Part shown: piece after piece, positions 304 to 21,146 of the stretch
Layout: each line of letters opens with the position of its first letter
Numbering within the stretch: the first letter of the stretch is position 1
Origin: a virus
Taxonomy: Duplodnaviria > Caudoviricetes
DNA length: 35,105 nucleotides
IMG/VR virus record: IMGVR_UViG_3300033076_000113
Location: 1 to 35,105 of that record
Direction: 5' to 3' (one strand)
Notes under the pieces: generated by a model
Told to the model about the DNA's origin: nothing
Seen by the model: the letters and a program-made list of their open reading frames with translations, nothing else
Database searches by the model: none
Translations under genes and position numbers: made by a program

Positions 304-313
304 GAGACGAGTG

Positions 314-496
314 ATGCGTAAGTTTTTGACCGGCCTGATCGCGGGCCTCGCACTGGGCACTGTCGTGCCAGCGGCTGCTGCTACGTTGGTAGGTGGCACC
401 GGCTACCTGACGGGCTGGACCGTCACCAAGGATGGCGATGAGATTTGCTACATGCCCTACGTCTGGACCAGCATCCGCGAGATCGAGTGCGACTGA
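314..496 (+). CDS. small exported/membrane protein
   Basis: AGGAG RBS at 302-306; MRKF plus hydrophobic stretch and AxA-like cleavage site; two Cys. Confidence 0.7.
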   Translation: MRKFLTGLIAGLALGTVVPAAAATLVGGTGYLTGWTVTKDGDEICYMPYVWTSIREIECD

Positions 497-1203: not shown

Positions 1204-3020
1204 ACGTCATCACCGTAGACTTCGAGACCTTCTACGACCGGCACTTCTCGCTCTCGAAGATGACGACCGAGGAGTATATCCGCGACGAGTTGTTTGAGGT
1301 TATCGGCGTAGCTGTAAAGGTGGGTGACGGGGAGACCCAGTGGTTCTCCGGCCCCAAGGCGCAGACCAAGCGGTGGCTGGAGCAGTTTGACTGGGCGAAC
1401 AGCATAGCTGTGGCGCACAATGCCATGTTCGACATGGCGATCCTGAACTGGCACTTCGACATCCGCCCCAAGCGCATCGCTGACACGCTGTCCATGCTGC
1501 GCGCACTGGACGGGCCAGACGCTGGCAACAGCCTCGCCAAGGCAGCCGAGCGGTATGGGCTGGGGGTGAAGGGCGACGAGGTGGTCAACGCGCTTGGTAA
1601 GGGGCGCATCGACTTCACGCCCGAAGAGCTACACCGCTACGCGCAATACTGCATCAACGATGTGGACCTGACCTACGACCTGTTTAACCGCATCGCAGTT
1701 GGCTTCCCGGCAATCGAGTTTCGCCTGATCGACCTGACGCTGCGGATGTTCACTGAGCCAGTGCTGACGCTCGACGCTACCATCCTGCGGGACCACCTCT
1801 CCGAGGTGCAGCGCAAGAAGAACGAGCTACTGGGCAAAGCGCTCATCTCCAAGGACAACCTGATGTCCAACGGCCAGTTGGCCGAGACGCTGCGCGATCT
1901 TGGGGTAGAGCCGCCGACCAAGATTAGCCCGACTACGGGCAAGGAGACCTATGCCTTTGCGAAGAACGACGAGGCGTTCAAGGCGCTGCTGGAGCATGAG
2001 AACCCTATCGTTCAGGCGATTGTGGCGGCGCGTCTGGGTGTCAAGTCTACGCTGGAAGAGACGCGCACTGAGCGGTTCATCCGGATTGCTGAGCGCGGGA
2101 CCCTGCCCATCCCCCTACGTTACTATGCGGCCCACACGGGACGCTGGGGCGGAGACGACAAGGTAAACATGCAGAACCTCCCCCGGAAGTCGCCACTGAA
2201 GAAGGCGATCCGGGCACCAGAGGGCTATACCTTTATCGACTGCGACTCCTCGCAGATCGAAGCGCGAACCTTGGCGTGGCTGGCTGGGCAGGACGACCTC
2301 GTTGCGGCGTTCGACCGGGGTGAGGACGTTTACAAGATCATGGCCTCCGCCATCTACGGCGTGCCGGTGGACGAGGTGACGGACGACCAGCGGTTCGTGG
2401 GTAAGACCACGATCCTTGGCTGCGGCTATGGGATGGGGGCTGCCAAGTTCCAAGCGCAGTTGCTGACGTTCGGCGTCAAGATGGACCTCGACGAGTGCAA
2501 GCGCATCATTAGCGTTTACCGGGAGACCTACCCCATGATCCCGAAGCTGTGGCGGGCTGCGGGTGACGCGCTAGACGCAATGGCGAACAACCAGACCGCG
2601 CCGCTTGGCCGGGACGGAGTGCTTGTGGTCGAGGGCCGGGAAGGCATCCGGCTACCCAACACGCTGCGTCTACGCTACGAGAACCTGCGCTGGGTGCAGA
2701 CCCCAGAGGGCAAGTCCGAGATGGTCTACGACCAGAAGAAGGGCCGCGCCATCCTCACGACCCGCATCTATGGCGGGAAGTGCGTCGAGAACATCTGCCA
2801 AGCCTTGGCCCGTATCGTGATCGGGGAGCAGATGCTGATGGTCGCACGGCGTTTGCGCGTGGTGATGACGGTCCATGACGCGGTAGGGAGCATTGCTCCT
2901 ACTGAAGAAGCAGAAGACGCGAGACTTTTCGTTGAGCAGTGCATGCGCATCCGCCCCAAGTGGTCGGCCCTGCTGCCGCTGAACTGTGAGAGCAAGATGG
3001 GAGCAAGCTATGGCGGATAA
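1200..3020 (+). CDS. polA: DNA polymerase family A with 3'-5' exonuclease
   Basis: Exo motifs DFET, AHNAMFD, YCINDV; HTGRWGG; motif A DSSQIEAR; motif B RFVGKTTILGCGYG; motif C TVHDA. Confidence 0.97.
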   Translation: MNVITVDFETFYDRHFSLSKMTTEEYIRDELFEVIGVAVKVGDGETQWFSGPKAQTKRWLEQFDWANSIAVAHNAMFDMAILNWHFDIRPKRIADTLSMLRALDGPDAGNSLAKAAERYGLGVKGDEVVNALGKGRIDFTPEELHRYAQYCINDVDLTYDLFNRIAVGFPAIEFRLIDLTLRMFTEPVLTLDATILRDHLSEVQRKKNELLGKALISKDNLMSNGQLAETLRDLGVEPPTKISPTTGKETYAFAKNDEAFKALLEHENPIVQAIVAARLGVKSTLEETRTERFIRIAERGTLPIPLRYYAAHTGRWGGDDKVNMQNLPRKSPLKKAIRAPEGYTFIDCDSSQIEARTLAWLAGQDDLVAAFDRGEDVYKIMASAIYGVPVDEVTDDQRFVGKTTILGCGYGMGAAKFQAQLLTFGVKMDLDECKRIISVYRETYPMIPKLWRAAGDALDAMANNQTAPLGRDGVLVVEGREGIRLPNTLRLRYENLRWVQTPEGKSEMVYDQKKGRAILTTRIYGGKCVENICQALARIVIGEQMLMVARRLRVVMTVHDAVGSIAPTEEAEDARLFVEQCMRIRPKWSALLPLNCESKMGASYGG

Positions 3021-6832: not shown

Positions 6833-6853
6833 TACACCACTAGGAGCAAACTG

Positions 6854-8395
6854 GTGCAGATTATCGACAACAAAGCCCTCCTCTTGGAGGTGGCTGACCC
6901 CTCTGTGGTTACTGACCACATCCACAATAGCGCCGCAGTTAAGGAAGGCGTGGTTGTCAAATGGGGACACACTGAGACGGAAATCCTAGCCAAGCTGGGG
7001 TTCGAGGCTCCCTCGCCCATGCTCAAGTCCTACGAGTGGACGGGTAAGCTCACGCCCTTTGAACACCAGAAGACCACGGCATCATTCCTCTCGATCCGGC
7101 GCAGGGCTTTCTGCTTCAACGAGCAGGGCACTGGCAAGACGGCCAGCGTCATCTGGGCAGCCGATTACCTCATGAAGCGTGGGCTGGTGAAGCGCGTGCT
7201 GGTGCTGTGCCCCCTGTCGATCATGAAGTCGGCGTGGCAGCAGGACCTGTTTAAGTTCGCCATGCACCGGTCGTGCAGCGTGGCACACGGGACCGCCAAG
7301 CAGCGCGAGAAGATCATCAACGCAGGGGCTGAGTTCGTCATCATCAACTTCGACGGGCTGGCTATCGTGAAGGACCAGATTATCGCTGGTGGGTTCGACC
7401 TGATCGTGATCGACGAGGCCAACGCCTACAAGAACGCGCAGACCAACCGCTGGGGTGTCCTCAACAAGATCGTCAAAGAGACTGACCCGCGTCTGTGGTT
7501 GCTTACTGGTACGCCAGCAGCACAGTCCCCACTGGACGCTTACGGCCTCGCCAAGCTGGCCGACACGCCGAACTGCCCCAAGTACTACGGTCAGTACCGC
7601 GACAAGGTGATGATGAAGGTCACTACGTTTAAGTGGGTGCCCAAGGCCAACGCGCAGGACGTGGTGCATAGCATCCTCCAGCCAGCCATCCGGTTCGAGA
7701 AGAAGGACTGCCTCGACCTACCGGAGGTTACCCATATTGAAAGAGAGGCACCGCTCACGCCGCAGCAGGCTAAGTACTACGCCCAGTTGAAGAGCCAGAT
7801 GCTGATCGAGGCATCGGGCGAAGAGGTCAGCGCGGTCAACGCAGCGACCAAGATCAACAAGCTGCTCCAGATCAGCGGAGGCGCAGTCTACACGGACGAA
7901 GGCTCGGTGCTGGAGTTCGACGTCTCCAACCGCCTGAACGTGGTCATGGAAGTGATCGAGGAAGCCAGCAACAAAGTGCTGGTGTTCGTGCCGTTCACCC
8001 ATACCATCGAGCTTCTGCGGGCCAAACTGGAGAAGGCAGGGATCACCTGCGACGTCATCAACGGTAAGGTGCCAGTTAATCGGCGCTCGGAGATCGTCCA
8101 GCGGTTCCAGACCCACAAGGACCCCCATGTCCTGATTATCCAGCCACAGGCAGCCTCTCACGGCCTTACCCTTACGGCGGCAGACACAATCATCTGGTAC
8201 GCCCCGGTCACCAGCGTGGAGACTTATCTACAGGCAAATGCCCGTATCAACCGCCCGGGCCAGAAGAATGCTATGACCGTGGTCCACATCCGTGGCAGCG
8301 AGGTCGAGGAGCGCCTCTACCGGATGCTGCAAAACAACATTGAGAACCACGAGAAAATTATCGACCTCTACCGTCAAGAACTTGACATTGTATAA
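6854..8395 (+). CDS. SNF2-family helicase
   Basis: EQGTGKT, IDEA, LLTGTP, HGLTLT, QANARINRPGQ motifs; AGGAG RBS. Confidence 0.95.
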   Translation: MQIIDNKALLLEVADPSVVTDHIHNSAAVKEGVVVKWGHTETEILAKLGFEAPSPMLKSYEWTGKLTPFEHQKTTASFLSIRRRAFCFNEQGTGKTASVIWAADYLMKRGLVKRVLVLCPLSIMKSAWQQDLFKFAMHRSCSVAHGTAKQREKIINAGAEFVIINFDGLAIVKDQIIAGGFDLIVIDEANAYKNAQTNRWGVLNKIVKETDPRLWLLTGTPAAQSPLDAYGLAKLADTPNCPKYYGQYRDKVMMKVTTFKWVPKANAQDVVHSILQPAIRFEKKDCLDLPEVTHIEREAPLTPQQAKYYAQLKSQMLIEASGEEVSAVNAATKINKLLQISGGAVYTDEGSVLEFDVSNRLNVVMEVIEEASNKVLVFVPFTHTIELLRAKLEKAGITCDVINGKVPVNRRSEIVQRFQTHKDPHVLIIQPQAASHGLTLTAADTIIWYAPVTSVETYLQANARINRPGQKNAMTVVHIRGSEVEERLYRMLQNNIENHEKIIDLYRQELDIV

Positions 8396-8410
8396 TAGAA
8401 GGAGTAGAGC
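8382..8410 (+). promoter_or_regulatory. putative sigma70-type promoter
   Basis: TTGACA (8382-8387), 17 bp, TAGAGC (8405-8410) in an AT-rich gap upstream of the SSB/primase block. Confidence 0.5.
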
Positions 8411-8431: not shown

Positions 8432-8446
8432 ATGAAGGAGCAACTT

Positions 8447-8852: not shown

Positions 8853-9794
8853 ATGAGCAACATCACCATTTTTGAAGAACCATCCAACCTACCCACCGTG
8901 AAGCGCGAGTCGCGCCGCATGGACCGCATGTCCAGCGGTGGCAGCAGCACTCTGCGCCGCATCCAGCTTAGCAATGGCCGCACGTTCAAGCGCGTGGTCG
9001 GCGGCGAGCAGATCGGTAAGGCTGCCCCCAACCAGTTGGACGTTATCGTCGTTGACTGGCTCCCGGAGCCGAGCCGCAAGTTCTACGCATCGGCGTATGA
9101 CAAGGACGCTAAGCCGACCCTGCCTGACTGCTGGTCGAATGACGGCGTGGCCCCCGATGCAGGTGCCAAGAACAAGCAGGGTTCCTCCTGCGCCAACTGC
9201 CCCAAGAACGTGAAGGGTTCGGGCCAGAACGGTAAGGGCAAGGCATGCCGCTACGAGCGCCGTCTGGCTGTCCTCGTTGCTGGTGACCCCAGCGGCGATG
9301 TGTACCAGATTTCGATCCCGGGTGCTTCGCTGTTCAGCGACAACGATGGCAACGTCTACGGCTTTGAGGGCTACAAGAAGTTCCTCCTCGCCAACGGCGA
9401 AGCTCTGGATACGGTCGTAACCCGTATCATCTACGACGAAGAAGCTGACACCGCCAAGGTTGGGTTCAAGGCAGTTCGCCACCTGACCGAAGTCGAGTCT
9501 GGCTTCGTGGATCAGGCACAGGATGACCCGGCTACCGAGAAGTACATCCTGCTGACTGCTGGTGCGATTGATGGTGCCAAGGCTCCGGCTGCTCAGGCCA
9601 ACAAGCCGCTGGCTCTGGAAGCTGCGCCGAGCGCCGCTCCGGCCAATCCGTTTGGTGATGACGACGAGGACGAGGAAGAAGTTCCGGCTGAACCTGCCAA
9701 GCGTGCGGCAAAGCCGAAGGCTGCTGCTGAGGCCAAGCCGGAACTGGCTTCGGTTCTGGGCCAATGGCTGGATGACGACGGGGATGAGGACTAA
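8853..9794 (+). CDS. putative single-stranded DNA-binding protein
   Basis: Highly biased codons; CWS..G..P, CANCPKN...ACR; A/P linker and acidic tail WLDDDGDED; position between helicase and primase. Confidence 0.65.
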   Translation: MSNITIFEEPSNLPTVKRESRRMDRMSSGGSSTLRRIQLSNGRTFKRVVGGEQIGKAAPNQLDVIVVDWLPEPSRKFYASAYDKDAKPTLPDCWSNDGVAPDAGAKNKQGSSCANCPKNVKGSGQNGKGKACRYERRLAVLVAGDPSGDVYQISIPGASLFSDNDGNVYGFEGYKKFLLANGEALDTVVTRIIYDEEADTAKVGFKAVRHLTEVESGFVDQAQDDPATEKYILLTAGAIDGAKAPAAQANKPLALEAAPSAAPANPFGDDDEDEEEVPAEPAKRAAKPKAAAEAKPELASVLGQWLDDDGDED

Positions 9795-9796
9795 TC

Positions 9797-10024
9797 ATGC
9801 GAGGCTACAGCATCCGCGTAGCCGAGGCTATTCAGGGGGCTGATGCCAGTCTCCTCGGGGTGCAACTCGGGCGGGCTTGTCTCGCCCGGGACATCTCCGT
9901 CTCGGAAGCAGCGAAGGGGTTGAACGTCACGCGCCAAACGGTCTACCACTGGTTCCTTGGGCTGAGTGAGCCAAGGGGCAAGGCCCGGGACGCGATCCAG
10001 ACCTACCTAGCCTCGTTCGACTGA
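9797..10024 (+). CDS. XRE/Cro-like HTH protein
   Basis: ISVSEAAKGLNVTRQTVYHWFLG. Confidence 0.85.
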   Translation: MRGYSIRVAEAIQGADASLLGVQLGRACLARDISVSEAAKGLNVTRQTVYHWFLGLSEPRGKARDAIQTYLASFD

Positions 10025-10066
10025 GGCAACCATTAGAGCAAATTAATAGCGGGATTTCCCGCAACG

Positions 10067-12922
10067 GTGAGTGATGCAATGCAACAACCTGATCTCTTGA
10101 CCCTAGTGCAGCCAGCGGAAGGCTGGTTCGCCATCACGGGCATCAAGGGTAAGGGTAAGAACGCTGACGTCCGTCAGGAGCTTGTGGCTACGCGAGAAGA
10201 GGCAGATGCCCTCGTCGAGCAGTTCGTCCAAGCCGGGCGCAATGCGTTCTTTGGGGTGGCTAAGTACAAGACGGGTGACAACCGCAAGAAGGAGAACGTC
10301 CTTGGCCTCAAGGCGTTCTGGCTCGATGTGGACTGCGGCCCGGACAAAGCGGAACCCAACCCCAAGACCGGACGGCCTGACGGCTATGTGGACCAGAAGG
10401 CGGGGCTGGATGCCCTGATGGGCTTCTGCAAAACAATCGGTCTCCCTATCCCTACTCTCGTAAACTCCGGCGGTGGTATCCACGCCTACTGGCCTCTGGA
10501 AGAGACTGTATCCCGGCGCGACTGGGAGCCTGTGGCTGAGCGCTTCAAGGAAGTGTGCCGCACCCAGAACTTCTACGTTGACCCGGCTGTCTTCGAAGTG
10601 GCGCGCATCCTGCGTGTCCCCGGCACGTTCAACTTCAAGGAAGAAGAGCCGCGCCCGGTCGAGTTCATCCATGTGGGCAAGCCTACCACGCTGGAGGCTA
10701 TGCGCGCTGCGCTCGGTGTTAAGAAGCAAGCGTCGATCTTCGACGACGACTTCGAGATGACCCCACGCCAGAAGGCCATGATGAGCGGGGTGGGCTACAA
10801 CTTTAAGAAGATCATGCAGCGCACCGCCAAGGGTGATGGCTGCAACCAGCTTCTACACGCGTACCAGCACCGGGATAGCATCACTTACCACGAATGGTTC
10901 TACGCGCTCTCTGTGGCTGCCATGTGCGAGGACGCCGATAAGGCGGTGCACATGATGTCTGATGGGCATCCGGACTATGACCCGGAGACCGTGGACAAGA
11001 AGGTAGCCACCATCAAGAAGGCGACCAGTTGCGCCAAGTTCCGCAGTGTCAATCCTGACCTGTGCGATGGTTGTCCACATCTGGATAAGATCATGGGACC
11101 CAAGGAACTGGGCAAGGTGGTCAAGGAGTCCAACGAGGACTTTGTAGAGGTTGAGGTCGAGCCGGGTGTGGTCGAGCAGATCGACATCCCTAAGTATCCG
11201 TTCCCGTTCTACCGGGGCGAAGATGGCGGTATCTGGCGCAAACCACCCAAGGACGCGCCTCCTGAAACGGAACCCATGTTCGTCTATCCGTACGACTTCT
11301 ATGTCGTGAAGCGGATGCACGATCCGGGTGAGGGCGACTCGGCGCTAATGAGACTGCACCTACCACAGGATGGGTTGCGTGAGTTCATTGTGCCCATGGC
11401 GAAGGTAACCACGAAGGATGAGCTTCGCAAAATCCTCTCGTCCAACGGGGTCTACTCCTACGGGGCACGGTTCGACGCGCTGATGGACTACGTCCTCAAG
11501 TCAGCAGAGCAGCTACAAGACAGACAGAAAGCAGAGATCATGCGGCAGCAGTTTGGTTGGGTCGATAACAACAGCCGGTTCGTGCTGGGCGACCAAGAGA
11601 TCACCGTCGAGGGGAATGTCTACTCCCCTCCGTCTAAGGCCACTAGCAAGCTGGCCAAGTTCATCGGCCCGGTGGGCACGCTGGAGAACTGGAAGGAAGT
11701 CTGGGCGCTGTTTGGCCAAGAAGGGATGGAAGCACAGGCGTTCGCTGCGCTTAGCGCGTTTGGCTCTCCGCTGCTCAAGTTCCTCAACCAGACCGGGGCC
11801 ATCATCAACCTGTTCAACCCGCGCTCCGGTACGGGTAAGACCACGATCCTCAACATGGTGAACAGTGTCTACGGGCACCCGAAGGAACTGCGCCTCAAGG
11901 AGATCGACACTATGAACGGTCGGCTCCAGTGGGTGGGCATCCTCAATAACCTGCCGCCTACGATGGACGAGCTTACCAACGCCACGCCGAAGGAATATTC
12001 GGACCTGCTCTACATCATGTCCAATGGTAAGGGTAAGGAGCGCATGTTGGCGGGGTCCAACGAACTGCGCGAGAACAACACCACATGGCAGAACATCACG
12101 GTCTCGACATCCAACTCGTCGTTCGCTGAGAAGCTGTCGGTCCTCAAGGATAACCCGGAAGGCGAACTGATGCGCCTGATCGAGTACCCCATCGGGCTGG
12201 TAGACGCGATCAACACGGCGCATGCCAAGAACCTGTTCGATCAGGTGCTGTTCGCTAACTACGGGCACGCTGGACCGGTCTACATCCGCTACCTACTGGC
12301 CAACCTAGAGCAGGTTCAGACCAAGTGCCTCGCCATGCAAGCCAAGATCGACAAGGAGCTTCAGCTTCTTCCCAAGGAGCGGTTCTGGTCAGCCACGTTC
12401 GCTGCCAACATCCAAGGTGGGCTGTTCGCCAAGCGGTGCGGTCTGATCGACTGGGATATGACCCGTATCTATAACTGGTCGTGCAAGCAGATCGAGCGGC
12501 TGCGGGTCGAGACTGAGGCCCCTCTTGACGGACCAGAGCAGGCGGTCGGTGATTACCTCTACCGGCATATGCAGAACATCCTCGTCGTCAACGGTGAGGC
12601 TGACCGGCGCACTAACCTGTACGCAGGGCCGGTGCGCGAACCAAAGGGTGAGTTGCTGGTCCGCATCGAGCCGGACACCAAGATGATGTTCTTCATCGCC
12701 AAGCACTTCAAGGAATACTGCGTTAAGTACCAGATCAACTACAACCAGACCCTCGACAAGCTGGAGCAGCAGGGCCGTCTGGTGAAGAAGGCTGGGAAGC
12801 GCCTGTCCAAGGGTATGGCGGTCTCCGGTGAAAATATCCACTGCCTCTGGTTCAAGCTCTCGGAAGACTTCGTCGGGGTAGACGAGTACGTCCAGCCGGA
12901 CGCCGAGGACGATGCTGATTGA
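10067..12922 (+). CDS. primase-helicase (RepB-like primase plus DUF927-type ATPase); start may be ATG 10079
   Basis: WLDVD, NSGGGIHAYW, RILRVPGTFN primase motifs; Cys cluster; SGTGKTT Walker A, MDE Walker B, GKGKER. Confidence 0.9.
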   Translation: MSDAMQQPDLLTLVQPAEGWFAITGIKGKGKNADVRQELVATREEADALVEQFVQAGRNAFFGVAKYKTGDNRKKENVLGLKAFWLDVDCGPDKAEPNPKTGRPDGYVDQKAGLDALMGFCKTIGLPIPTLVNSGGGIHAYWPLEETVSRRDWEPVAERFKEVCRTQNFYVDPAVFEVARILRVPGTFNFKEEEPRPVEFIHVGKPTTLEAMRAALGVKKQASIFDDDFEMTPRQKAMMSGVGYNFKKIMQRTAKGDGCNQLLHAYQHRDSITYHEWFYALSVAAMCEDADKAVHMMSDGHPDYDPETVDKKVATIKKATSCAKFRSVNPDLCDGCPHLDKIMGPKELGKVVKESNEDFVEVEVEPGVVEQIDIPKYPFPFYRGEDGGIWRKPPKDAPPETEPMFVYPYDFYVVKRMHDPGEGDSALMRLHLPQDGLREFIVPMAKVTTKDELRKILSSNGVYSYGARFDALMDYVLKSAEQLQDRQKAEIMRQQFGWVDNNSRFVLGDQEITVEGNVYSPPSKATSKLAKFIGPVGTLENWKEVWALFGQEGMEAQAFAALSAFGSPLLKFLNQTGAIINLFNPRSGTGKTTILNMVNSVYGHPKELRLKEIDTMNGRLQWVGILNNLPPTMDELTNATPKEYSDLLYIMSNGKGKERMLAGSNELRENNTTWQNITVSTSNSSFAEKLSVLKDNPEGELMRLIEYPIGLVDAINTAHAKNLFDQVLFANYGHAGPVYIRYLLANLEQVQTKCLAMQAKIDKELQLLPKERFWSATFAANIQGGLFAKRCGLIDWDMTRIYNWSCKQIERLRVETEAPLDGPEQAVGDYLYRHMQNILVVNGEADRRTNLYAGPVREPKGELLVRIEPDTKMMFFIAKHFKEYCVKYQINYNQTLDKLEQQGRLVKKAGKRLSKGMAVSGENIHCLWFKLSEDFVGVDEYVQPDAEDDAD

Positions 12923-13106
12923 GGGCGTCACCTATGATGTGGACTGGCCGAGGTTCAAAAAGGGGAGGTCGCTCTTCTTCCCCTGCCTCGATCAGGCACG
13001 CGCCGAGACACAACTAATGGTGGTCCTCAACCGCCTCCGCATCAAGGTCTTGGTCAAGCACGTTATCGAAGACGGGATTAGGGGTTTACGGGTCTGGCGC
13101 ATGTGA
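12912..13106 (+). CDS. hypothetical protein
   Basis: GAGGA RBS; ends GIRGLRVWRM, a frequent ending in small phage DNA-binding proteins. Confidence 0.75.
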   Translation: MLIEGVTYDVDWPRFKKGRSLFFPCLDQARAETQLMVVLNRLRIKVLVKHVIEDGIRGLRVWRM

Positions 13107-13113
13107 GTATACG
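13085..13113 (+). promoter_or_regulatory. putative promoter for junction sRNA
   Basis: TTTACG (13085-13090), 17 bp, TATACG (13108-13113), ending 6 nt before hairpin 1. Confidence 0.55.
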
Positions 13114-13119
13114 GGCGCT

Positions 13120-13195
13120 GGAAGTTTGCTCCTTCCGTCGGGTGCATTGCATCACTCCCGAACCCCCGGCTGCCTCACTCAGCCGGGGGTTTTTT
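13120..13195 (+). ncRNA. candidate three-hairpin trans-acting antisense sRNA
   Basis: Hairpins GGAAG/CTTCC (13120-13136), TCGGG/CCCGA (13138-13161) and terminator; 11-15 nt exact complementarity to helicase and primase start regions. Confidence 0.7.
13161..13195 (+). terminator. intrinsic terminator between convergent modules
   Basis: AACCCCCGGCTG-cctcact-CAGCCGGGGGTT followed by T run. Confidence 0.9.
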
Positions 13196-16100
13196 ATTGC
13201 CCAAGCTCGGCTGCGCGCCGTTCCGCCTCAGACTGACGCACTGGGATTTTCGGATTGTAGCCAAGGCCACCTTCCCGCTGCGCAGCATCCGCGCTCTTAC
13301 TGGCGTAGGACTTCTGCTTGTCTTCCTCAGTGATCTCGTTCGACGGGTAGTTGAGGTTGTAGATTTTGATCGCCCGCTCGGCTTCCTGAAACTCCTTGGC
13401 GGTCTCAGGGGTCGGGTTGAGGTAGTAGGCCCGAGCAGCGCGGTACCGCTGACCCAGCAACTGGGTAGCCTCAGCAGCGATGCCCTTTTCGATGTCAGTG
13501 GCGGCGATGTCCAACTGCATGTTGCGCGAAGTCTCTGCGTCACCAAACCCGAGAGACTGCATCCCCGTCTTGTACAGGGTGTAGTAGCTGGGGTCCTTTA
13601 GCATAACATCACGGTCTGCCCCCACCACGAGACCTTCGTCCCGCAGCCGCTGGGCCTTGATGAAGTTGCGGATCATGGCGGGCATGCCCGTCTCAATGGC
13701 CTTATCAATGTCCCCAGCGTTGAACTGCTTCCACGACTTAAGGAACGAGGCATACATAGAGCCAGTGGCACCAGCACCGGCACGCCCCATGAACTCGAAC
13801 AGCCGCACCTCAGGGTCATCTGACTTAGTAGCAACCGGGTGCCACAGATCGCCCAGTGAGACCGATCCAGACAGGTCTACGTTAAAGAGGCCCGGAAGCC
13901 CGATGTCGGCGGCTGCCTCCAGCTTCTTCGCCGCAGTGTCACCAACACCCAGCATAGAAGCCAGTGTGCCGTTGGGTCCAAACATCTGGGGAATCCATTC
14001 GGTCCGGATGTAGTACTCCATATCCTTCTTGCTCAGTTCGTGCCCCTTTTCGTCGGCGTACTTGAGCATTTCCTTCTGGATGGTCTCGTCGGTCAGGTAG
14101 CCGCCAGCAACTTCCTTGTCCTTGTCCTCATCATCGTCACCCAGACCCTTGACGAACTCCATCAGACCGTAGCCCAGCATGGCGAGGGCATAGAACTGAG
14201 TAGCACGGAAACCGCCGTAGAGCGCGGTCATCGCCCCCACGCCGAAGAACACCTTGGCCGAGGCGACCTTACCTTCCTTGTTGAAGTACGGGAGCATCCC
14301 GTAGAAGCTACGGAACAGCAGCGACGACATGGTGATGCTGTACGAGCGCATCTGAAGTGCCAGCCGCCCGACCGGTGCCTTGGAGTAGCGCGACTTGTTC
14401 CAGTTGGTGAAGTCGAACATCGCCTTCCGGGTGAGCTTGTCTGCCTGTTTCATGGCAGCATCACCAGCAGCAGCCGGGTCCATGCCTCCCTTGAGATTGC
14501 GCTCGTAGGCCAGTTCGAAGGCCGACATATACATGATCTCACGCCCGATACGCTCGGTGCTATGGAAGAGCGCACCCATGGCATTGATGGCGTTCCCAGT
14601 AGCCCTCTGGGCTGCGGTCAGCACTTCCCCACGGCGCAGAGCCTGCACGGCCCCAAAGTCCCCGGTGGGGGTATCAGCACGCTCATAGATGTCTGCCCCC
14701 GCTGAGAACGTGCTCTCGGTGACGTCGTGGTCCTTGGCGTACTCCCATGCCTTCTGCATAGCAGCGTAGCGGTCAGGATCGGTCTCTTGCAGGCCACGGA
14801 TGTACGCGCTGTCTTCCGCCGTGAACTTGGGGAACTCCAGCTTCACATTACCTTCTTCGTCCCGGAACGGGACCGCCATGCGCTTACCGGTCAGCAGTTC
14901 TGCCGTGTAGCGGGTAGCCATGCCGTAGGTGGCCTTCTCACCAAACTCAGCCGACAGGGTGGGCAGACCCACGATGTGAAGCTGGGTAAGGTTCATGGCA
15001 GCCGACTTCACCCCGGACAGGAAGAAGAGGAAGGTGCCCTTGGCATTGACGCTGACGAAGCGGTCAAACCAGCCATTGATGTCTGGCGACATGATCCCTT
15101 CAACGCGCATCTCGATCTCGCGGGTCATCGTATCCAGCCGGGGCTTGGACGGATTACCCGCAGTCTCGGCGTAGGATGCCTCGATGAGGTTCTTCAGCCT
15201 GTAGTTGTACGCAAGCCTGCCAAGCTGGCTGGCAGAGGCTACCGCAGTAGACGCAAAGGTGCGCAGTGCGTCGGTGCTGAAACCAGTCTTGAACTCGCGG
15301 TGGATGAAGCGCCGACGCATGTCTGCCTCAGGCAGCGCCATCAGGTACATCTGGAAGATGTTGTCCTTGAGGACGTCCACATCGGTGACATTGTCCCCCT
15401 CGATCTTGTCGAGGATGTTCCGGAGTGCCACGCTGGCGTCCGCAGCCTTGCTACGCAGTCCGTTGCGCAGGGTGTCCTTACCTTGGCTGAAGTCGATAGC
15501 GCGCGTCTCACCCTCGGCCTTAATCTTCCGGACGAAGTCCTGCTGCTCTCCGAGGCTTTCGAACAGGTGAAACTCGCTGTTCGGACCCTTACCGACGCTA
15601 ACCCAGTATTCACCAAAGCGCTTGAGCGGGAAGTAGATGCTGCGTGCCCGCGCCTTGGCGAACATTTCATCGACCGCCGACTTAAGCTCGACAGCCTTCT
15701 CGTTCTCGAACTGAGATGCGTCGATGCGCTCCATGAGGAGACGGTAGTGCTCCTCGAAGGTATTGCGGTAATGGTCCCGGGCCAGACGGAAGATGCGCTT
15801 GCCAGCGCCGCCACCCATCTTGGCATCCGACAGGTCGTTCCAACCATACACCTTAGCGCCAGTGTCGGGGTCTTCACCACCATAGTAGACGCGCTGGATT
15901 TCCCCACGGCGGCGGCTGATCTGCCCCTTGAGCGCGTTCTTTTTCTTCGGGTCCGTTTCGGCTGCTAGCTTAGTAGCAAGCTCGATCAGCTTGGTATCAA
16001 CCTTGGCGTACTCTGCTGCCGACGCAGCCAGCGTTGGGTCCACATCGTACATGTTGGCGATGTACATTACATCGGCCAGCGCCTGATTGCCCTCCTCAAA

Positions 16101-19100
16101 GCGCGAGGCAAACTCAGTCCACTTCTCGGATACAGACGAAGCAGCCTGCATAAGCCGATTGATGTAGGGGCTGTACTCATCCCGGATCATATCGTCGATC
16201 TTCGAGATGTTCTCCATGCCAGCACGCTCAGCGAGGCGCACCACGTCCTCGGTCATCATCGGACCAAGCAGCTTCTGGAGGAGCGGTGGGGGGACGCTAT
16301 TGAAGAGGCTCGTCAGGAGATTGACGTCGTCGTTCTGACCACGCGCAAGCAGCATCAGCTTACCCGACAGGCTCAGGGCCTCTTCGGCATTACGGCTCTT
16401 AACGATCCGCTGCTGCATGTTGCTGAGCTTCATCCGGCGGATACCGGCGGCTTCTTCCAGTCGCTTGATCTGCCCCTTGGTCAGCTTGGCTGATACAACC
16501 TGATCGACGTTGGCGTCAGTTACCGGCTCCGTGCCACCCTGAGCGCCTGCTCCAGTGTCCCGCCCTGCTCCAGCACTGCCAGTACGTTCGAAAGATGGGC
16601 CGAGTACGGATTCCCCGGTGCTTCCTGCTCCGCTAGGTCCGCGTACGTCGCCAGTTCCGCCGTCGCCTGCTCCTTCGGATGCTTGCTCTGGGCTGCCTTC
16701 TGTAAAACGATTTCCGCGATATTCGACGGTGATGTCGGGGTTTTTGCCATTGAAAAGCTCCACGCCGAGTTGGACAATATCGGCATAATCGTTGGCGACT
16801 GTAGTCGCAAAAGCAGTCTTGAACCAGTCATAGTCGAACTGGTCATCAGCTTCCAAGTTCAACAGGATGTCCTGCATCTCGGCAGGGAAGTTAGCGTTAT
16901 GGCTGCGCACCTTATGGTGAGCAAGCTCGTGAACCATCGTGCCGACGATGCCGTAACCAGCGCGCAGACCATCCCCATACTTGGGGACCAACGGGTTGAT
17001 GAAGCTACCTGAGAACGGCAGCCGGATCGAGACACCACGATACTCAGGGTCAAACGAGACACCAATCGCTTCGTCGCGGAGGCTACCATAACCCATGACG
17101 CGAGCGACTTCGTTGCGCAGCGTGAGGAACGCGTCCCCGTTGTAGCGCATGAAGTCATCAAAGCGCTGCCCGAACCGGCGGCGCATATAGTCCGGGATCG
17201 ACATCTTCTCACCAGTGGCGTTGATGACCACATCGGTGTTGTCGTGGACCATGACCGCATTCGTGTCGATGAGGTCCGGGCTAACCGTAAGGTCGCTGGC
17301 GCTCGGGATACCAGCCTTCAGTTCATCCGGGGTCAGTTCGGGCATTTCCTGCCCGTTGACCAGCAGTTCCCCGTTCTCGCCAACCGTGATCTGGTCGCCC
17401 TCTGCAATGCGCGTGAAGGCCGTGTCCTGCACCGGGATGTCCGGCGTAAGGTCTACCATCGGGCCAAGCTGGCCATCGGGCTGAAAGTACTGGATGCTAC
17501 CGAAGCTCGTCGCTTCTCCAGCCCTACTCTTGTAGGCATAGATAGCGTCAACGTACTTCTTAACCTTACCAAACTCCATCTTGGCGTCGTCGGTAAAGTT
17601 TTGGCGGTTGAAGTTGAACGGGTACCCCGGCTGGTCCGGCTTCACGGACGGCACGATGTCCACATAGAAGGTATAAGGGACCGAAGGCCCCCACATGTCT
17701 GAAGGGTCTTTCTTCACCGCAGTCGAGAACTGCCACAGCCCGTTCGACAGGATGTGCATGTTCTCACCATAGGTCTGCGCGGTCTGGTTGCGAGTGACAT
17801 AGACCTTGGCAGTACCCCATGGGAACTTCACTCCGACAAACTGGGTGTAGTCCTCAACTGGGAAGTTCGAGCCGACCTTAACGTCTTCTGGCCCCATGTA
17901 GCTGCGACCTTGGAAGGTGACAGCGATGTTCGAGAACAGGGGGCTGAGTTCAAGTGACGGGACGCCATCCAGCCAGCGGGGAAGCTCCTTGATTTTGTAG
18001 TCGCCAGCTTCTTCCGGGATCGTCAACTGGATGATGGTGCCATGCCCGTCAGGGAACACCATGAAGTCCGGACCCGCAAAGTCACGGACCTCGATGTCCG
18101 GGGCCTGATTAGGATCGTCGAGTGAAGCGAAAAGCTGCTCGCCTGTCACGTCCATCTCAGCGATGCGCCCATCCCGCGCAGTGGTCACGCGGATGTTCTT
18201 GTTGGCGTAGAGGAACAGCATCTTGGCGATGCCGAAGCCGCCCGCGTTCTTGTCGCCTTCCTTGGCCGTACCAGCGATCTCAAGGAACTTACCGCCCAGC
18301 AGTTCGGGCGTCATACCGATCCCGTTGTCCTTGACCGTCAGCTTGCGGCCATCATCCGAGACGACGATGTCGATCTTACCCTGCTGGACCTGCCCTTCGT
18401 TAACCGCAGTCCGGGTAGCGTCGAACGAGTTCTGGAGGACTTCCTTGATGCAGACCTGACCCATATTGGTCGGGTCACCATAAAGCTGCGGGCCGAGCAT
18501 CTTAGCCATGCGGGTGGCGTTGATCCCCGGCTTGGCGCGGATCGTCTCGTACTCAGGATCGTAGGGCGTTACCTGCTCGACCATGTCCTCCTTTGGCATG
18601 GCATCGACTTCCGCCTGTGCCATGTTGAGGACCTTCTCAGCCGCAGTCTTACCGGGCTTGCGCTTAATGGTCGCCTTGACCGCCTTGGCCTTGGCACCCT
18701 TGGTACCGACCGCCTTGACCTTCTCCGGTGCGCGAGCGGGAGCAGCCTTAGCTGCTGCTTGCGTAGGTGCAGCCTGCGCTTCAGCGACGCGTTCTTGTGC
18801 CCACTGCTGCCCAGCCTTGTAGGCGTCCAGAGCGTCTTGGCCCTGCGCTTCTAGGATTTGCTGGTCGGGGAGCGGCTCACGCCCACGCTGAGTGTCCACT
18901 GCGCCTTCACGGAACATGCCCGGATCAAGGCCACGGTCCTGCGCTTCCGACACGGCGAAGCGGTCGAGGTTCTCCGCAATCTGCTGCGGAGTGTACTGCG
19001 GTTCTGGCGTGATAGAAGGTGCTTGGGTGGCGGGGCGCACCATGCTGCCGTCAGGCTGCTCTTGGAAGCCGAAGCCCTTGTACCATTCGGTCAGTTCGGT

Positions 19101-21146
19101 GGGCGACATCTGCTTGCCCGCTTCAGCCGCAAACGGCTCGGGGCTAAGCTGGATCGTGGTGCCATTATCGTCAGCCGCCTTGGTAAGCTGCTGCATGGCC
19201 TTGCGGCCACCACCCTTCTCGACTGCACGCAGGCTATCAAGCTGAACGATGTCTTCGCCAACAGGGGTAAGCTGGATGCCACCACCTTCGACCAATACCT
19301 CATTGGTGTTCTCGGGATTAACCGTACCGGCACCAGCCAAGTCGTTAAGGGTCTTCTGCGCCGGGGGCGTGACCTTCTCAACCGTAGCCGTCTCAGCCAC
19401 AGTGGGACCTTCGACGACCTGCTGTTCACCATTGACTTCGGTAACCGTGCGGAAGGTACCCGGGGCTTCACCCATGGGCTGTTCGGTCTTGGGCTGCTCG
19501 ACCTTAGGTGCAACAGTCTCACCACGCAGGCGCTGGCCGCGTTCCAGAACGGACCCAATCGCATCGTAGGGATCGACTTCCGGGCTTTGCAGCACGATGC
19601 GCGCAGCCTGCTTCTTCTGCTCGGCGTTGAGCTTCTTGACGCCATAGCTGTCTTCGAAGTCGATCTGGTTGTCCGCGAACGTCTGCTCGATGGTCGGGAT
19701 GGTAGCCTTGACCTGCGCGCCCGTGATCTTGGGTAGCTCAAGCGGAGGCGCGGTCGGAGCCGGAGTTAGTGCAGGCTCTCCCGCTCGCGGGCCAACATCA
19801 GGAACTGATACGCTAGGAACAGGTTCTCCCAGTCCTCCAGTGACAGCTTCTCCAATGTCGGGGATACCGGCTCCGGTCGGTGCGGCTCCGAGATCAGGAG
19901 CAACGCCTGCTCCAACTCCTCCGCTGACATCCACAGTGGTACCAGTAACGGGTTCTGCATTTGCTCCTCCCTCTCCCCTAGCCACCATGTTGGCTGCGGC
20001 TTTGGTGAGCAGTTCTTCCGCCCGCTCCGAAACTGCCTCGACAGCAGTCTTCTGGTCCATACCCGGGTTAGCAGCCATGACGGCGGCAACCTCTTGGGCT
20101 GCCAGCCGCTGAAACTCCTGCTTGATCTCCGGAGCGACCGGAACACCCTCACTGGTAACGTCCCCCTTGCGGCGGAACGGCGCGGCGACAGCCTCGGTAG
20201 CACCCGTAAACACCGTACCACCAAGGGCACCAGCCAGACCGGCTTCGAGCGTTTCAAGCATGGCCTTCTTGGTGAGAGGGTCCGTGCCGCCAGCGACCTG
20301 CTCAATTACGTTCTGGAGCATTTCGGTCCCGGCTTCCTCGCCGCCCGATTTAGCAACCCGGATCGCTGCCTGCTTCAATCCAGCCTCAAGCAGTTCCTTA
20401 GCAGCAATAGCTGCGGTACCGCTCAAAATCTTCCCACCAACACCGGTTAGTACATCAAGCGCAGAGGACGCGGCAGTACCGAAAACTGCCCTGTCTATGT
20501 TGCGAATGCCTTCGGCCTGTTGGCGCTCACGGATACCGCCGTAGGTCATCGGGACATTGCCCGCACCCATAACGAGACCGGCAGCCATAGGGCTACGAGT
20601 GAGAAGCCCAGTGGCTACACCCGCACCAACAGGGAGCGCGCTCTCCGCCACTGTTTCGGCCAAAGAACCTAGGCTGCGCCCAAAACCCTGCTCTTCAAAA
20701 AAGCCACCATATTTACGTGGGCCAATTTCAGCCAACTGCTTTTCAGCCGCTGCGCGCTCAGAGGCGACCATTTCGCCGGTGAGGCCCTTGTAGGTTTCCG
20801 ATTGGGCAGCAGCCGCGCCAAGACCCTTTGCCAATGGCGCAAGATAATTTGTGCCCGGTAGCGACGAGAAGAGAGACGCCGCGACTTCCGGAGCGTCTTC
20901 AACGATCTGCGCTAGCCCCTTACGGAGATTCGGTACACCGCGCTCTACCGCGCGCCCCAATGCCGAGAAGACACCTTCGTCTTCCGGAGCAGCAGAGGTC
21001 GGGGCCGGTGCAGGAACCGCTGGGGTTTGGACCGGGGCAGCCTGTGCATGGGTCATATTAGCCCATTGCCACGCCGTGTTTGCGTCAGGGGCCGTGACGA
21101 TATATTCTGCGTCTCCGACTTTTACCCTGTACTTGGCGTCAGGCAT
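13194..21146 (-). CDS. giant polyvalent internal virion protein with GNAT-like, GHKL ATPase and HEXXH zincin-like regions
   Basis: 2650 aa; EKGGGRKAM...LTEWYKGFGF; KEVLQNSFDA, VKDNGIGM, GGFGIAK; MVHELAHHKVRSH; helical C-terminal half; last gene of the virion operon. Confidence 0.88.
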   Translation of the reverse strand: MPDAKYRVKVGDAEYIVTAPDANTAWQWANMTHAQAAPVQTPAVPAPAPTSAAPEDEGVFSALGRAVERGVPNLRKGLAQIVEDAPEVAASLFSSLPGTNYLAPLAKGLGAAAAQSETYKGLTGEMVASERAAAEKQLAEIGPRKYGGFFEEQGFGRSLGSLAETVAESALPVGAGVATGLLTRSPMAAGLVMGAGNVPMTYGGIRERQQAEGIRNIDRAVFGTAASSALDVLTGVGGKILSGTAAIAAKELLEAGLKQAAIRVAKSGGEEAGTEMLQNVIEQVAGGTDPLTKKAMLETLEAGLAGALGGTVFTGATEAVAAPFRRKGDVTSEGVPVAPEIKQEFQRLAAQEVAAVMAANPGMDQKTAVEAVSERAEELLTKAAANMVARGEGGANAEPVTGTTVDVSGGVGAGVAPDLGAAPTGAGIPDIGEAVTGGLGEPVPSVSVPDVGPRAGEPALTPAPTAPPLELPKITGAQVKATIPTIEQTFADNQIDFEDSYGVKKLNAEQKKQAARIVLQSPEVDPYDAIGSVLERGQRLRGETVAPKVEQPKTEQPMGEAPGTFRTVTEVNGEQQVVEGPTVAETATVEKVTPPAQKTLNDLAGAGTVNPENTNEVLVEGGGIQLTPVGEDIVQLDSLRAVEKGGGRKAMQQLTKAADDNGTTIQLSPEPFAAEAGKQMSPTELTEWYKGFGFQEQPDGSMVRPATQAPSITPEPQYTPQQIAENLDRFAVSEAQDRGLDPGMFREGAVDTQRGREPLPDQQILEAQGQDALDAYKAGQQWAQERVAEAQAAPTQAAAKAAPARAPEKVKAVGTKGAKAKAVKATIKRKPGKTAAEKVLNMAQAEVDAMPKEDMVEQVTPYDPEYETIRAKPGINATRMAKMLGPQLYGDPTNMGQVCIKEVLQNSFDATRTAVNEGQVQQGKIDIVVSDDGRKLTVKDNGIGMTPELLGGKFLEIAGTAKEGDKNAGGFGIAKMLFLYANKNIRVTTARDGRIAEMDVTGEQLFASLDDPNQAPDIEVRDFAGPDFMVFPDGHGTIIQLTIPEEAGDYKIKELPRWLDGVPSLELSPLFSNIAVTFQGRSYMGPEDVKVGSNFPVEDYTQFVGVKFPWGTAKVYVTRNQTAQTYGENMHILSNGLWQFSTAVKKDPSDMWGPSVPYTFYVDIVPSVKPDQPGYPFNFNRQNFTDDAKMEFGKVKKYVDAIYAYKSRAGEATSFGSIQYFQPDGQLGPMVDLTPDIPVQDTAFTRIAEGDQITVGENGELLVNGQEMPELTPDELKAGIPSASDLTVSPDLIDTNAVMVHDNTDVVINATGEKMSIPDYMRRRFGQRFDDFMRYNGDAFLTLRNEVARVMGYGSLRDEAIGVSFDPEYRGVSIRLPFSGSFINPLVPKYGDGLRAGYGIVGTMVHELAHHKVRSHNANFPAEMQDILLNLEADDQFDYDWFKTAFATTVANDYADIVQLGVELFNGKNPDITVEYRGNRFTEGSPEQASEGAGDGGTGDVRGPSGAGSTGESVLGPSFERTGSAGAGRDTGAGAQGGTEPVTDANVDQVVSAKLTKGQIKRLEEAAGIRRMKLSNMQQRIVKSRNAEEALSLSGKLMLLARGQNDDVNLLTSLFNSVPPPLLQKLLGPMMTEDVVRLAERAGMENISKIDDMIRDEYSPYINRLMQAASSVSEKWTEFASRFEEGNQALADVMYIANMYDVDPTLAASAAEYAKVDTKLIELATKLAAETDPKKKNALKGQISRRRGEIQRVYYGGEDPDTGAKVYGWNDLSDAKMGGGAGKRIFRLARDHYRNTFEEHYRLLMERIDASQFENEKAVELKSAVDEMFAKARARSIYFPLKRFGEYWVSVGKGPNSEFHLFESLGEQQDFVRKIKAEGETRAIDFSQGKDTLRNGLRSKAADASVALRNILDKIEGDNVTDVDVLKDNIFQMYLMALPEADMRRRFIHREFKTGFSTDALRTFASTAVASASQLGRLAYNYRLKNLIEASYAETAGNPSKPRLDTMTREIEMRVEGIMSPDINGWFDRFVSVNAKGTFLFFLSGVKSAAMNLTQLHIVGLPTLSAEFGEKATYGMATRYTAELLTGKRMAVPFRDEEGNVKLEFPKFTAEDSAYIRGLQETDPDRYAAMQKAWEYAKDHDVTESTFSAGADIYERADTPTGDFGAVQALRRGEVLTAAQRATGNAINAMGALFHSTERIGREIMYMSAFELAYERNLKGGMDPAAAGDAAMKQADKLTRKAMFDFTNWNKSRYSKAPVGRLALQMRSYSITMSSLLFRSFYGMLPYFNKEGKVASAKVFFGVGAMTALYGGFRATQFYALAMLGYGLMEFVKGLGDDDEDKDKEVAGGYLTDETIQKEMLKYADEKGHELSKKDMEYYIRTEWIPQMFGPNGTLASMLGVGDTAAKKLEAAADIGLPGLFNVDLSGSVSLGDLWHPVATKSDDPEVRLFEFMGRAGAGATGSMYASFLKSWKQFNAGDIDKAIETGMPAMIRNFIKAQRLRDEGLVVGADRDVMLKDPSYYTLYKTGMQSLGFGDAETSRNMQLDIAATDIEKGIAAEATQLLGQRYRAARAYYLNPTPETAKEFQEAERAIKIYNLNYPSNEITEEDKQKSYASKSADAAQREGGLGYNPKIPVRQSEAERRAAELGQ
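16520..16750 (-). CDS. candidate overprinted 76-aa ORF nested in giant gene
   Basis: GGAG 7 nt before ATG; helical-looking product; host frame is a G/A/T linker with atypical GGA/GCA/ACT codons. Confidence 0.5.
   Translation of the reverse strand: MAKTPTSPSNIAEIVLQKAAQSKHPKEQATAELATYADLAEQEAPGNPYSAHLSNVLAVLEQGGTLEQALRVARSR
19766..19960 (-). CDS. candidate overprinted 64-aa ORF nested in giant gene
   Basis: GGGAGGAGCAA-ATG strong RBS; amphipathic acidic product; host frame is a low-complexity linker with A/T-ending codons. Confidence 0.65.
   Translation of the reverse strand: MQNPLLVPLWMSAEELEQALLLISEPHRPEPVSPTLEKLSLEDWENLFLAYQFLMLARERESLH

Follow-up and report, generated by a model that had tools for sequence, protein, structure and literature searches.

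What is encoded where the two gene arms of this phage converge, in an 87-nt gap that is the site of promoter-like boxes, an anti-Shine-Dalgarno hairpin and an intrinsic terminator? The stretch analysed, referred to here as the window, is a 35,105-nt phage fragment that makes up the whole record (IMGVR_UViG_3300033076_000113), with replication genes on the plus strand and virion and lysis genes on the minus strand. An initial annotation regarded the junction as a promoter followed by three hairpins, the last a terminator, and proposed a modular riboregulator in which each hairpin addresses its own gene set, tuning replication genes or a lytic/latent switch. To our knowledge, the way in which the early phase ends in lytic phages without an RNA polymerase or sigma factor of their own is poorly known outside T4 and T7.

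The early arm on the plus strand carries the genes of a VRR-NUC-type endonuclease, a DNA polymerase, an exonuclease, an SNF2-type helicase, a Mu-Gam-like protein (Pfam 29.7 bits against a cut-off of 28.3), a 313-aa protein, called SSB-like as a guess from its position alone, an HTH protein, a primase/helicase and a conserved 64-aa protein. The late arm ends in a 2650-aa protein, in which a HATPase_c domain, a C-terminal part similar to DarB and a weak LPD39 match were observed; it is a polyvalent protein that is probably ejected. The features of the junction are as follows.

12912..13106, plus strand: conserved 64-aa gene, last of the early arm and marker for collecting relatives
13085..13090, plus strand: -35-like box TTTACG, within the final codons (G-L-R) of the 64-aa gene
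13108..13113, plus strand: -10-like box TATACG, without the -7 T, 17 nt from TTTACG
13120..13195, plus strand: predicted small RNA (sRNA) of about 76 nt, its start placed by the -10 spacing; layout conserved
13120..13136, plus strand: hairpin 1 with seed 1 (13122-13135), anti-extended-Shine-Dalgarno
13143..13157, plus strand: seed 2, fully complementary to the primase start region, inside a weak variable hairpin (13138-13161)
13163..13195, plus strand: intrinsic terminator, end of the early arm and of the RNA
13194..21146, minus strand: gene of the 2650-aa virion-type protein, closing the late arm and running towards the RNA

The boxes, hairpin 1 and the terminator lie where the initial annotation had placed them, but hairpin 2 is marginal and the promoter is not called by a strict consensus scan, which missed it because the -10 box lacks its last T. 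Hairpin 1 consists of a stem (13120-13124/13132-13136) and the loop UUUGCUC, and the terminator of a stem (13163-13172/13180-13189), the loop CCUCACU and a U-tract (13190-13195) that coincides in part with the stop codon of the opposing late 2650-aa gene (13190-13196). The predicted RNA as a whole (13120-13196) folds with a z of -4.08, but the part 5' of the terminator, with a z of -0.66, folds no better than shuffles, and hairpin 2 alone reaches -0.91. Because of this marginal value, and because it is variable or missing in relatives, hairpin 2 was rejected as a conserved fold. Only one terminator is counted in 4 kb, which is not above shuffled sequence. Its orientation is indicated by 36 G-U pairs on the plus versus 13 on the minus strand and by a poor U-tail in the minus-strand reading (1.5 A in 6 nt). 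Since a good minus-strand U-tail is missing, late read-through is plausible, and it could produce a complete antisense transcript by which the RNA is titrated.

A further promoter-like site, TTGACA-17-TAGAGC (8382-8410, plus strand), is located directly 5' of the Gam-like gene, with TTGAC kept in 43 of 47 representatives and a TATAAT only 3 nt 3' of the TTGACA. In the window, the -10 boxes of both this site and the junction lack the -7 T, and the state of this T is the same at the two promoters in 30 of 40 representatives (our own tally). A -10 box without the -7 T is described as typical of Alphaproteobacteria (PMC8407463), which gives no more than a hint of an alphaproteobacterial host.

Relatives were gathered by means of neighbouring proteins rather than the RNA itself. 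The 64-aa protein is encoded by 439 relatives in the viral collection, and 80 of these 439 stretches were among the matches listed; after loci of the second set that repeat an RNA body of the first were dropped, 119 loci were left, with L006, L007, L043 and L057 of the first set uncounted for want of a usable marker gene end. Behind the marker gene, a terminator could be parsed in 112 of the 119, and the seven failures comprise two at contig edges and five without the element (L005, L008-L010 and L049). Among 53 representatives under 85% alike, the anti-SD (anti-Shine-Dalgarno) CTCC is found in 51, and the Leu/Val codon at the -35 is TTA, TTG or GTA in all 53. The 3-nt -10 slot holds TA in 52 of 54 representatives, as against at most 24 of 54 for any of the other ten slots. 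In 28 sequences hand-picked from the hairpin-1 type, 95% of the cells of the hairpin 1 stem are paired, with changes on both sides at three of the five pairs, versus 41-71% paired in slid controls. In a distant lineage (L042-L046, L050 and L053-L071), the anti-SD sits in the linker 3' of a different hairpin, and exposure of the seed is therefore kept though the fold changes.

No coding frame is conserved in the locus; on the minus strand, frames of at least 30 aa with an SD and a start occur in only 4 of 54 representatives. On that strand, the L053 locus reads as a perfect SD with an ATG that starts a 98-aa frame, likely a by-product given the rarity of such frames. When the junction was compared by blastn with 50,697 annotated phages, no match was obtained. 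The nearest cultured relative by primase, with 28.7% identity, is Pseudomonas phage Rollin (L072, OR577172.1), whose gene order at 8975-10275 is similar; there, convergent genes overlap at the equivalent junction, so Rollin has no room for the RNA. Four of the 12 sequencing runs listed were compared with the junction; they consist wholly of assembled contigs of relatives, mostly under 90% alike, whose coverage has no bearing on expression. We regard the element as real and conserved and its RNA as probably functional; the predicted 76-base RNA is likely transcribed.

If an RNA is made here, which genes would it reach? The matches in the window that fall at gene starts are listed below, with energies from a ranking of 35 starts by pairing energy in which opening costs are included.

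309..317, plus strand: start of a 60-aa early gene, possible second target of seed 2 (9-nt match)
2999..3009, plus strand: possible weak target of seed 1, with one G-U pair
6842..6852, plus strand: ribosome-binding site (RBS) of the SNF2-type helicase gene (GTG 6854, plus strand), candidate target of seed 1; 11 nt, rank 2 of 35, -9.8 kcal/mol
8434..8446, plus strand: RBS of the Mu-Gam-like gene (ATG 8447, plus strand), first gene behind the TTGACA promoter, candidate target of seed 1; 10 nt at 8434-8443, -9.2 kcal/mol
10069..10083, plus strand: SD, spacer and ATG of the primase/helicase gene with DUF927 (ATG 10079, plus strand), candidate target of seed 2; rank 1 of 35, -17.9 kcal/mol

The longest antisense match of the junction in the whole 35 kb is the 15 nt between seed 2 and the primase start, and any 15-mer match anywhere in the window was obtained with 9 of 2000 shuffled junctions. 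Shuffled RNA bodies paired equally well with the primase start in 0 of 40 cases, with the helicase start in 0 of 40 and with the Gam-like start in 2 of 40. The earlier proposal that hairpins 1 and 2 are complementary to several start regions is thus borne out, with matches of 15, 11 and 10 nt above shuffled chance. The same ranking places late-strand genes third (-9.6 kcal/mol) and sixth (-8.7 kcal/mol), and the 60-aa early gene (-9.5 kcal/mol) between the former and the Gam-like gene. The segment at 2999..3009 may be constrained by coding, because it overlaps the coding end of the DNA polymerase gene. A small GC hairpin or palindrome (10049-10062, plus strand), retained in relatives with other stems, adjoins the primase SD on its 5' side; it may be an RNA element, or else an operator bound by the HTH protein encoded upstream. 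Two further 11-nt matches, both from the terminator, fall inside coding regions, one of them, from its loop, in that of the HTH gene (9960-9970). As a third seed the terminator loop was rejected, as its matches lie at starts in 11 of 144 cases and those of the RNA body in 65 of 259 (our own sums).

On both the Gam-like and the helicase gene, the ribosome-binding site is extended to a tag, AAGGAGCAAAC, that seed 1 complements. RNAs prefer their own Gam-like leader over foreign ones both in the first set (-23.3 versus -19.1, p 5e-5, n=27) and in the held-out set (p 5e-5, n=22), and a run of at least 8 nt between RNA and Gam-like leader is present in 40 of 47. Over 20 seed types, own leaders give 4.80 pairs outside the GGAG/CUCC core and foreign leaders 2.34; the own leader ranks first or equal first in 11 types and outright first in 2. 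Lineages with other tags carry the matching seed, such as ATCAAGGAG in L044 and AACCAAGGAG in L054; moreover, the seed UCGCUCC of L040 and L047 pairs with the tag GGAGCGA, UUAGCUCCUUCGU of L051 with ACGAAGGAGCUAA, and CUCCUUGGUUG of L054 and L067 with CAACCAAGGAG. Exceptions are L034 and L066, the RNAs of which do not match their own Gam-like leader. For the helicase leader, the preference for the cognate RNA has p values of 0.029 in the first set and 0.017 in the held-out set, weak given seven tests per set. No consistent preference was seen, in the first and held-out sets respectively, for the leaders of the SSB-like (0.018 and 0.67), HTH (0.93 and 0.31), exonuclease (0.27 and 0.67) and 96-aa (0.94 and 0.034) genes.

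The tag is not confined to these two genes. The seed complement is repeated at 12 starts in L027, 13 in L033 and 10 in L036, and in a survey of starts in the window and nine near-complete relatives (10 phage records), at least five extra pairs were found for 45 of 156 GGAG-led genes on the strand of the RNA (early) versus 1 of 126 on the opposite strand (late), a tally in which one self-hit was removed, strand serves as a proxy for early and late, and a single seed type accounts for six of the ten records. L053 contributes no early gene above this cut-off and L062 a single one. RNAs from other lineages score mostly 0 on the GGAG-led genes of these genomes. The letters 3' of AGGAG in the tag differ from the complement of the 16S tail, and hence shared ribosome mimicry does not explain the tag. 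All of this supports the prediction that seed 1 reads a tag common to many early genes.

Seed 2 is of narrower distribution, as it is found only in a 28-row clade that holds the window and in which the primase leader has GAGTG in place of the tag. Seed 2 and the GAGTG leader are both present at 26 loci and both absent at 77, an agreement of 103 of 109; the six discordant loci include L119, an apparent pattern artefact. The match with the primase start measures 15 nt in L011 as in the window; one paired change leaves 13-16 nt in L012-L018, two leave 11 nt in L015/L016, a paired deletion leaves 8 nt in L027-L031, and L033 has 10 nt, so that four compensatory variants are known (L012-L018, L015/L016, L027-L031 and L033). 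In L024, L149, L155 and L175, seed 2 is present and the primase leader is unmatched, which suggests a swapped RNA or another target. No primase pairing signal was obtained in the held-out set outside the clade (p 0.55). The data support seed 2 as a clade-specific addition, predicted to be aimed at primase. The modular organization put forward initially is accordingly upheld for two seeds, by conservation, target position and covariation, and fails for the terminator loop.

How far do these patterns reflect pairing, rather than kinship? In relatives, seed and target vary together in a lineage-matched manner, and the held-out Gam-like result agrees, but tree-aware tests do not reach significance. 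At the best position near the core, the tree-aware sign test has six pairs, about four of them (3.9) in the same direction and none opposite (p 0.125), and no position is significant, with too few independent pairs at every one. With so few such pairs and none significant, kinship inflates the p values obtained by permutation. Where pairing beside the seed is first interrupted, G-U and A-C mismatches number 43 to 43, a neutral outcome by which RNA-RNA pairing is not told apart from a copy of the sense strand. Taken together, base-pairing in some form with the primase, Gam-like and helicase starts is nevertheless very probable.

Because two segments complement gene starts and vary in step among relatives, the RNA likely lowers the translation of replication genes as a group. 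We consider it fairly probable that the predicted 76-nt RNA pairs with the start regions of early and replication genes, blocks ribosome loading and so shuts these genes down together. From the layout and conservation of the locus, the complementarity, its restriction to early-strand starts and the lineage-wise agreement of seed and target, we infer promoter use, pairing steps and timing as follows. Host sigma-70 polymerase would make the RNA from the promoter at 13085-13113; the RNA would double as the 3' end of the early operon. Pairing with the AGGAGCAAAC tag would nucleate in the loop of hairpin 1, whereupon the 3' arm would unzip, covering the SD. In the clade of the window, where the primase leader is without the tag, the second seed would cover the primase SD, spacer and AUG. 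Being structured and made alongside its targets, the RNA would build up and exert delayed negative feedback, by which the early phase would end and ribosomes would be free for late mRNAs, which lack the tag. The timing role is read solely from which genes bear the tag. That a large, apparently lytic phage family thereby possesses a private extended SD code on its early genes, read by one sRNA as an early-to-late switch and extended to new targets through seed modules such as the primase seed of this clade, has in our estimate an even chance of being correct.

The same pairing might serve another purpose, namely to keep a carrier or pseudolysogenic state or to exclude superinfecting kin that share the tag, for which the c4 RNA of P1 and P7 offers a precedent (PMC5320573). 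A promoter of host type needs no phage proteins, silencing of the primase, helicase and Gam-like genes would stall replication, and one seed type is common to distant lineages, so that cross-exclusion is possible. The gene content and distribution of the family point the other way: a tyrosine integrase is found in none of 10 near-complete relatives, a serine recombinase, ParA or S24 repressor in none of 5, and no lysogeny gene is named among 55 of the 79 ORFs of one genome scanned against PHROGs. Furthermore, 185,579 prokaryote genomes yielded a single match, on a contig of phage size, 60 kb, from a Nanopelagicales MAG (L179, JBBARV010000010.1), which is probably a binned phage rather than a prophage. 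A carrier state that does without such genes is possibly compatible with their absence; we regard carriage or exclusion as unlikely. Early shut-off is preferred to a latent switch because lysogeny genes were not found in relatives, and the lytic/latent switch of the initial annotation thus draws no support from gene content.

If the tag were read by a protein instead, be it a RegB-like nuclease, a translational repressor or a factor binding a DNA operator, the junction would be a decoy made by minus-strand late read-through, or a binding site. T4 RegB does read an extended SD tag on early mRNAs (PMC3014915), the poor minus-strand U-tail makes late read-through plausible, the wobble test is neutral and the operon contains an HTH gene. 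Promoter and terminator, however, both indicate a plus-strand RNA, the motif lacks palindromic symmetry and holds a constant position relative to the SD, and two unrelated seeds track their own targets, one of these a single gene, a pattern for which one protein site would not account; a protein reader is therefore distinctly unlikely. Action in cis is very unlikely, too. The 3' end of the Gam-to-primase operon mRNA could fold back on its own RBSs with no separate small RNA, as the predicted transcript from the promoter at 8382-8410 to the terminator includes the Gam-like and primase genes, but the helicase gene is upstream of that promoter, many tagged genes of relatives are 10-25 kb off, and a conserved -10 stands directly 5' of hairpin 1. 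The highly improbable reading, already largely refuted, is that the terminator alone is functional and the matches are chance or relics of a short inverted duplication. Pyrimidine runs of anti-SD type will pair with any SD, there are few independent covariation events, and one terminator in 4 kb is not above shuffles; yet the matches reach past the SD core and are lineage-matched, the stem of hairpin 1 is kept by compensatory change, and the chance of the 15-nt match, 9 in 2000 anywhere, is lower at a start.

Among known RNAs, the c4 RNA of P1 and P7 is the closest in form, being described as about 77 nt long with three stem-loops whose loops pair with RBSs of the phage's own genes and occlude them in part, with specificity set by changes of seed and target; RNase P releases it from a precursor, and it acts in immunity and lysogeny (PMC5320573). 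The predicted junction RNA is of similar length and likewise has segments complementary to RBS regions of its phage's own genes. Unlike c4, it is flanked directly by a promoter-like site and a terminator and does not match the c4 covariance model, and its predicted targets are dispersed early and replication genes with a common tag, in phages in whose relatives lysogeny genes were not found. The Cuckoo or alpha-r14 RNAs of Alphaproteobacteria have two to four short adjacent hairpins, each with CCUCCUCCC in its loop (PMC4615179), and resemble the junction in the adjacent hairpins and in an anti-SD motif exposed in a loop. The junction loops are UUUGCUC, a variable one and CCUCACU, in contrast, and the phage-borne seed UUUGCUCCUUC occurs once only and varies by lineage with the phage targets. 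Membership in the c4 and cuckoo families was rejected on the lack of an Rfam match and, for cuckoo, on the loops; an Rfam scan of the window up to E 5 gave no relevant match, apart from a chance snoRNA match at 873-928.

In logic, the nearest analogue is T4 RegB, a protein that cuts an extended SD tag on early mRNAs and spares late mRNAs (PMC3014915). In both cases early mRNAs would be tagged and inactivated as a class, whereas the reader predicted at the junction is an RNA acting by base-pairing. The junction RNA may thus be viewed, by analogy, as c4-like in form and RegB-like in logic. Other phage RNAs control translation by pairing, including sar of P22, OOP and aQ of lambda, VpdS of VP882 and PreS of lambda, but these are one-gene antisense RNAs or, in temperate phages, RNAs that work through Hfq on mRNAs of host and phage, and none reads a shared early-gene tag as far as the part of the source covered describes them (PMC12197685). 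A conserved seed complementary to distant gene starts, a general mark of trans-acting sRNAs, is found at the junction. No description of such an RNA was found in the literature searched, most subscription papers being outside its scope, and the seed motif does not occur in the searched part of the PMC10690425 supplements.

If the proposal is true, a 76-nt RNA silencing an early regulon through a co-evolving RBS tag would be a protein-free solution to ending the early phase, across a family of 439 relatives. The natural seed/target pairs of different lineages would provide orthogonal reporter controls and candidate parts for engineered translational switches, and the clade-specific primase seed would illustrate target gain by an sRNA. 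The length of the RNA body varies freely among relatives. At the junctions of L037, L050, L051, L111, L119 and L170, the predicted RNAs are longer and contain an additional hairpin or one more anti-SD segment, which suggests further modules.
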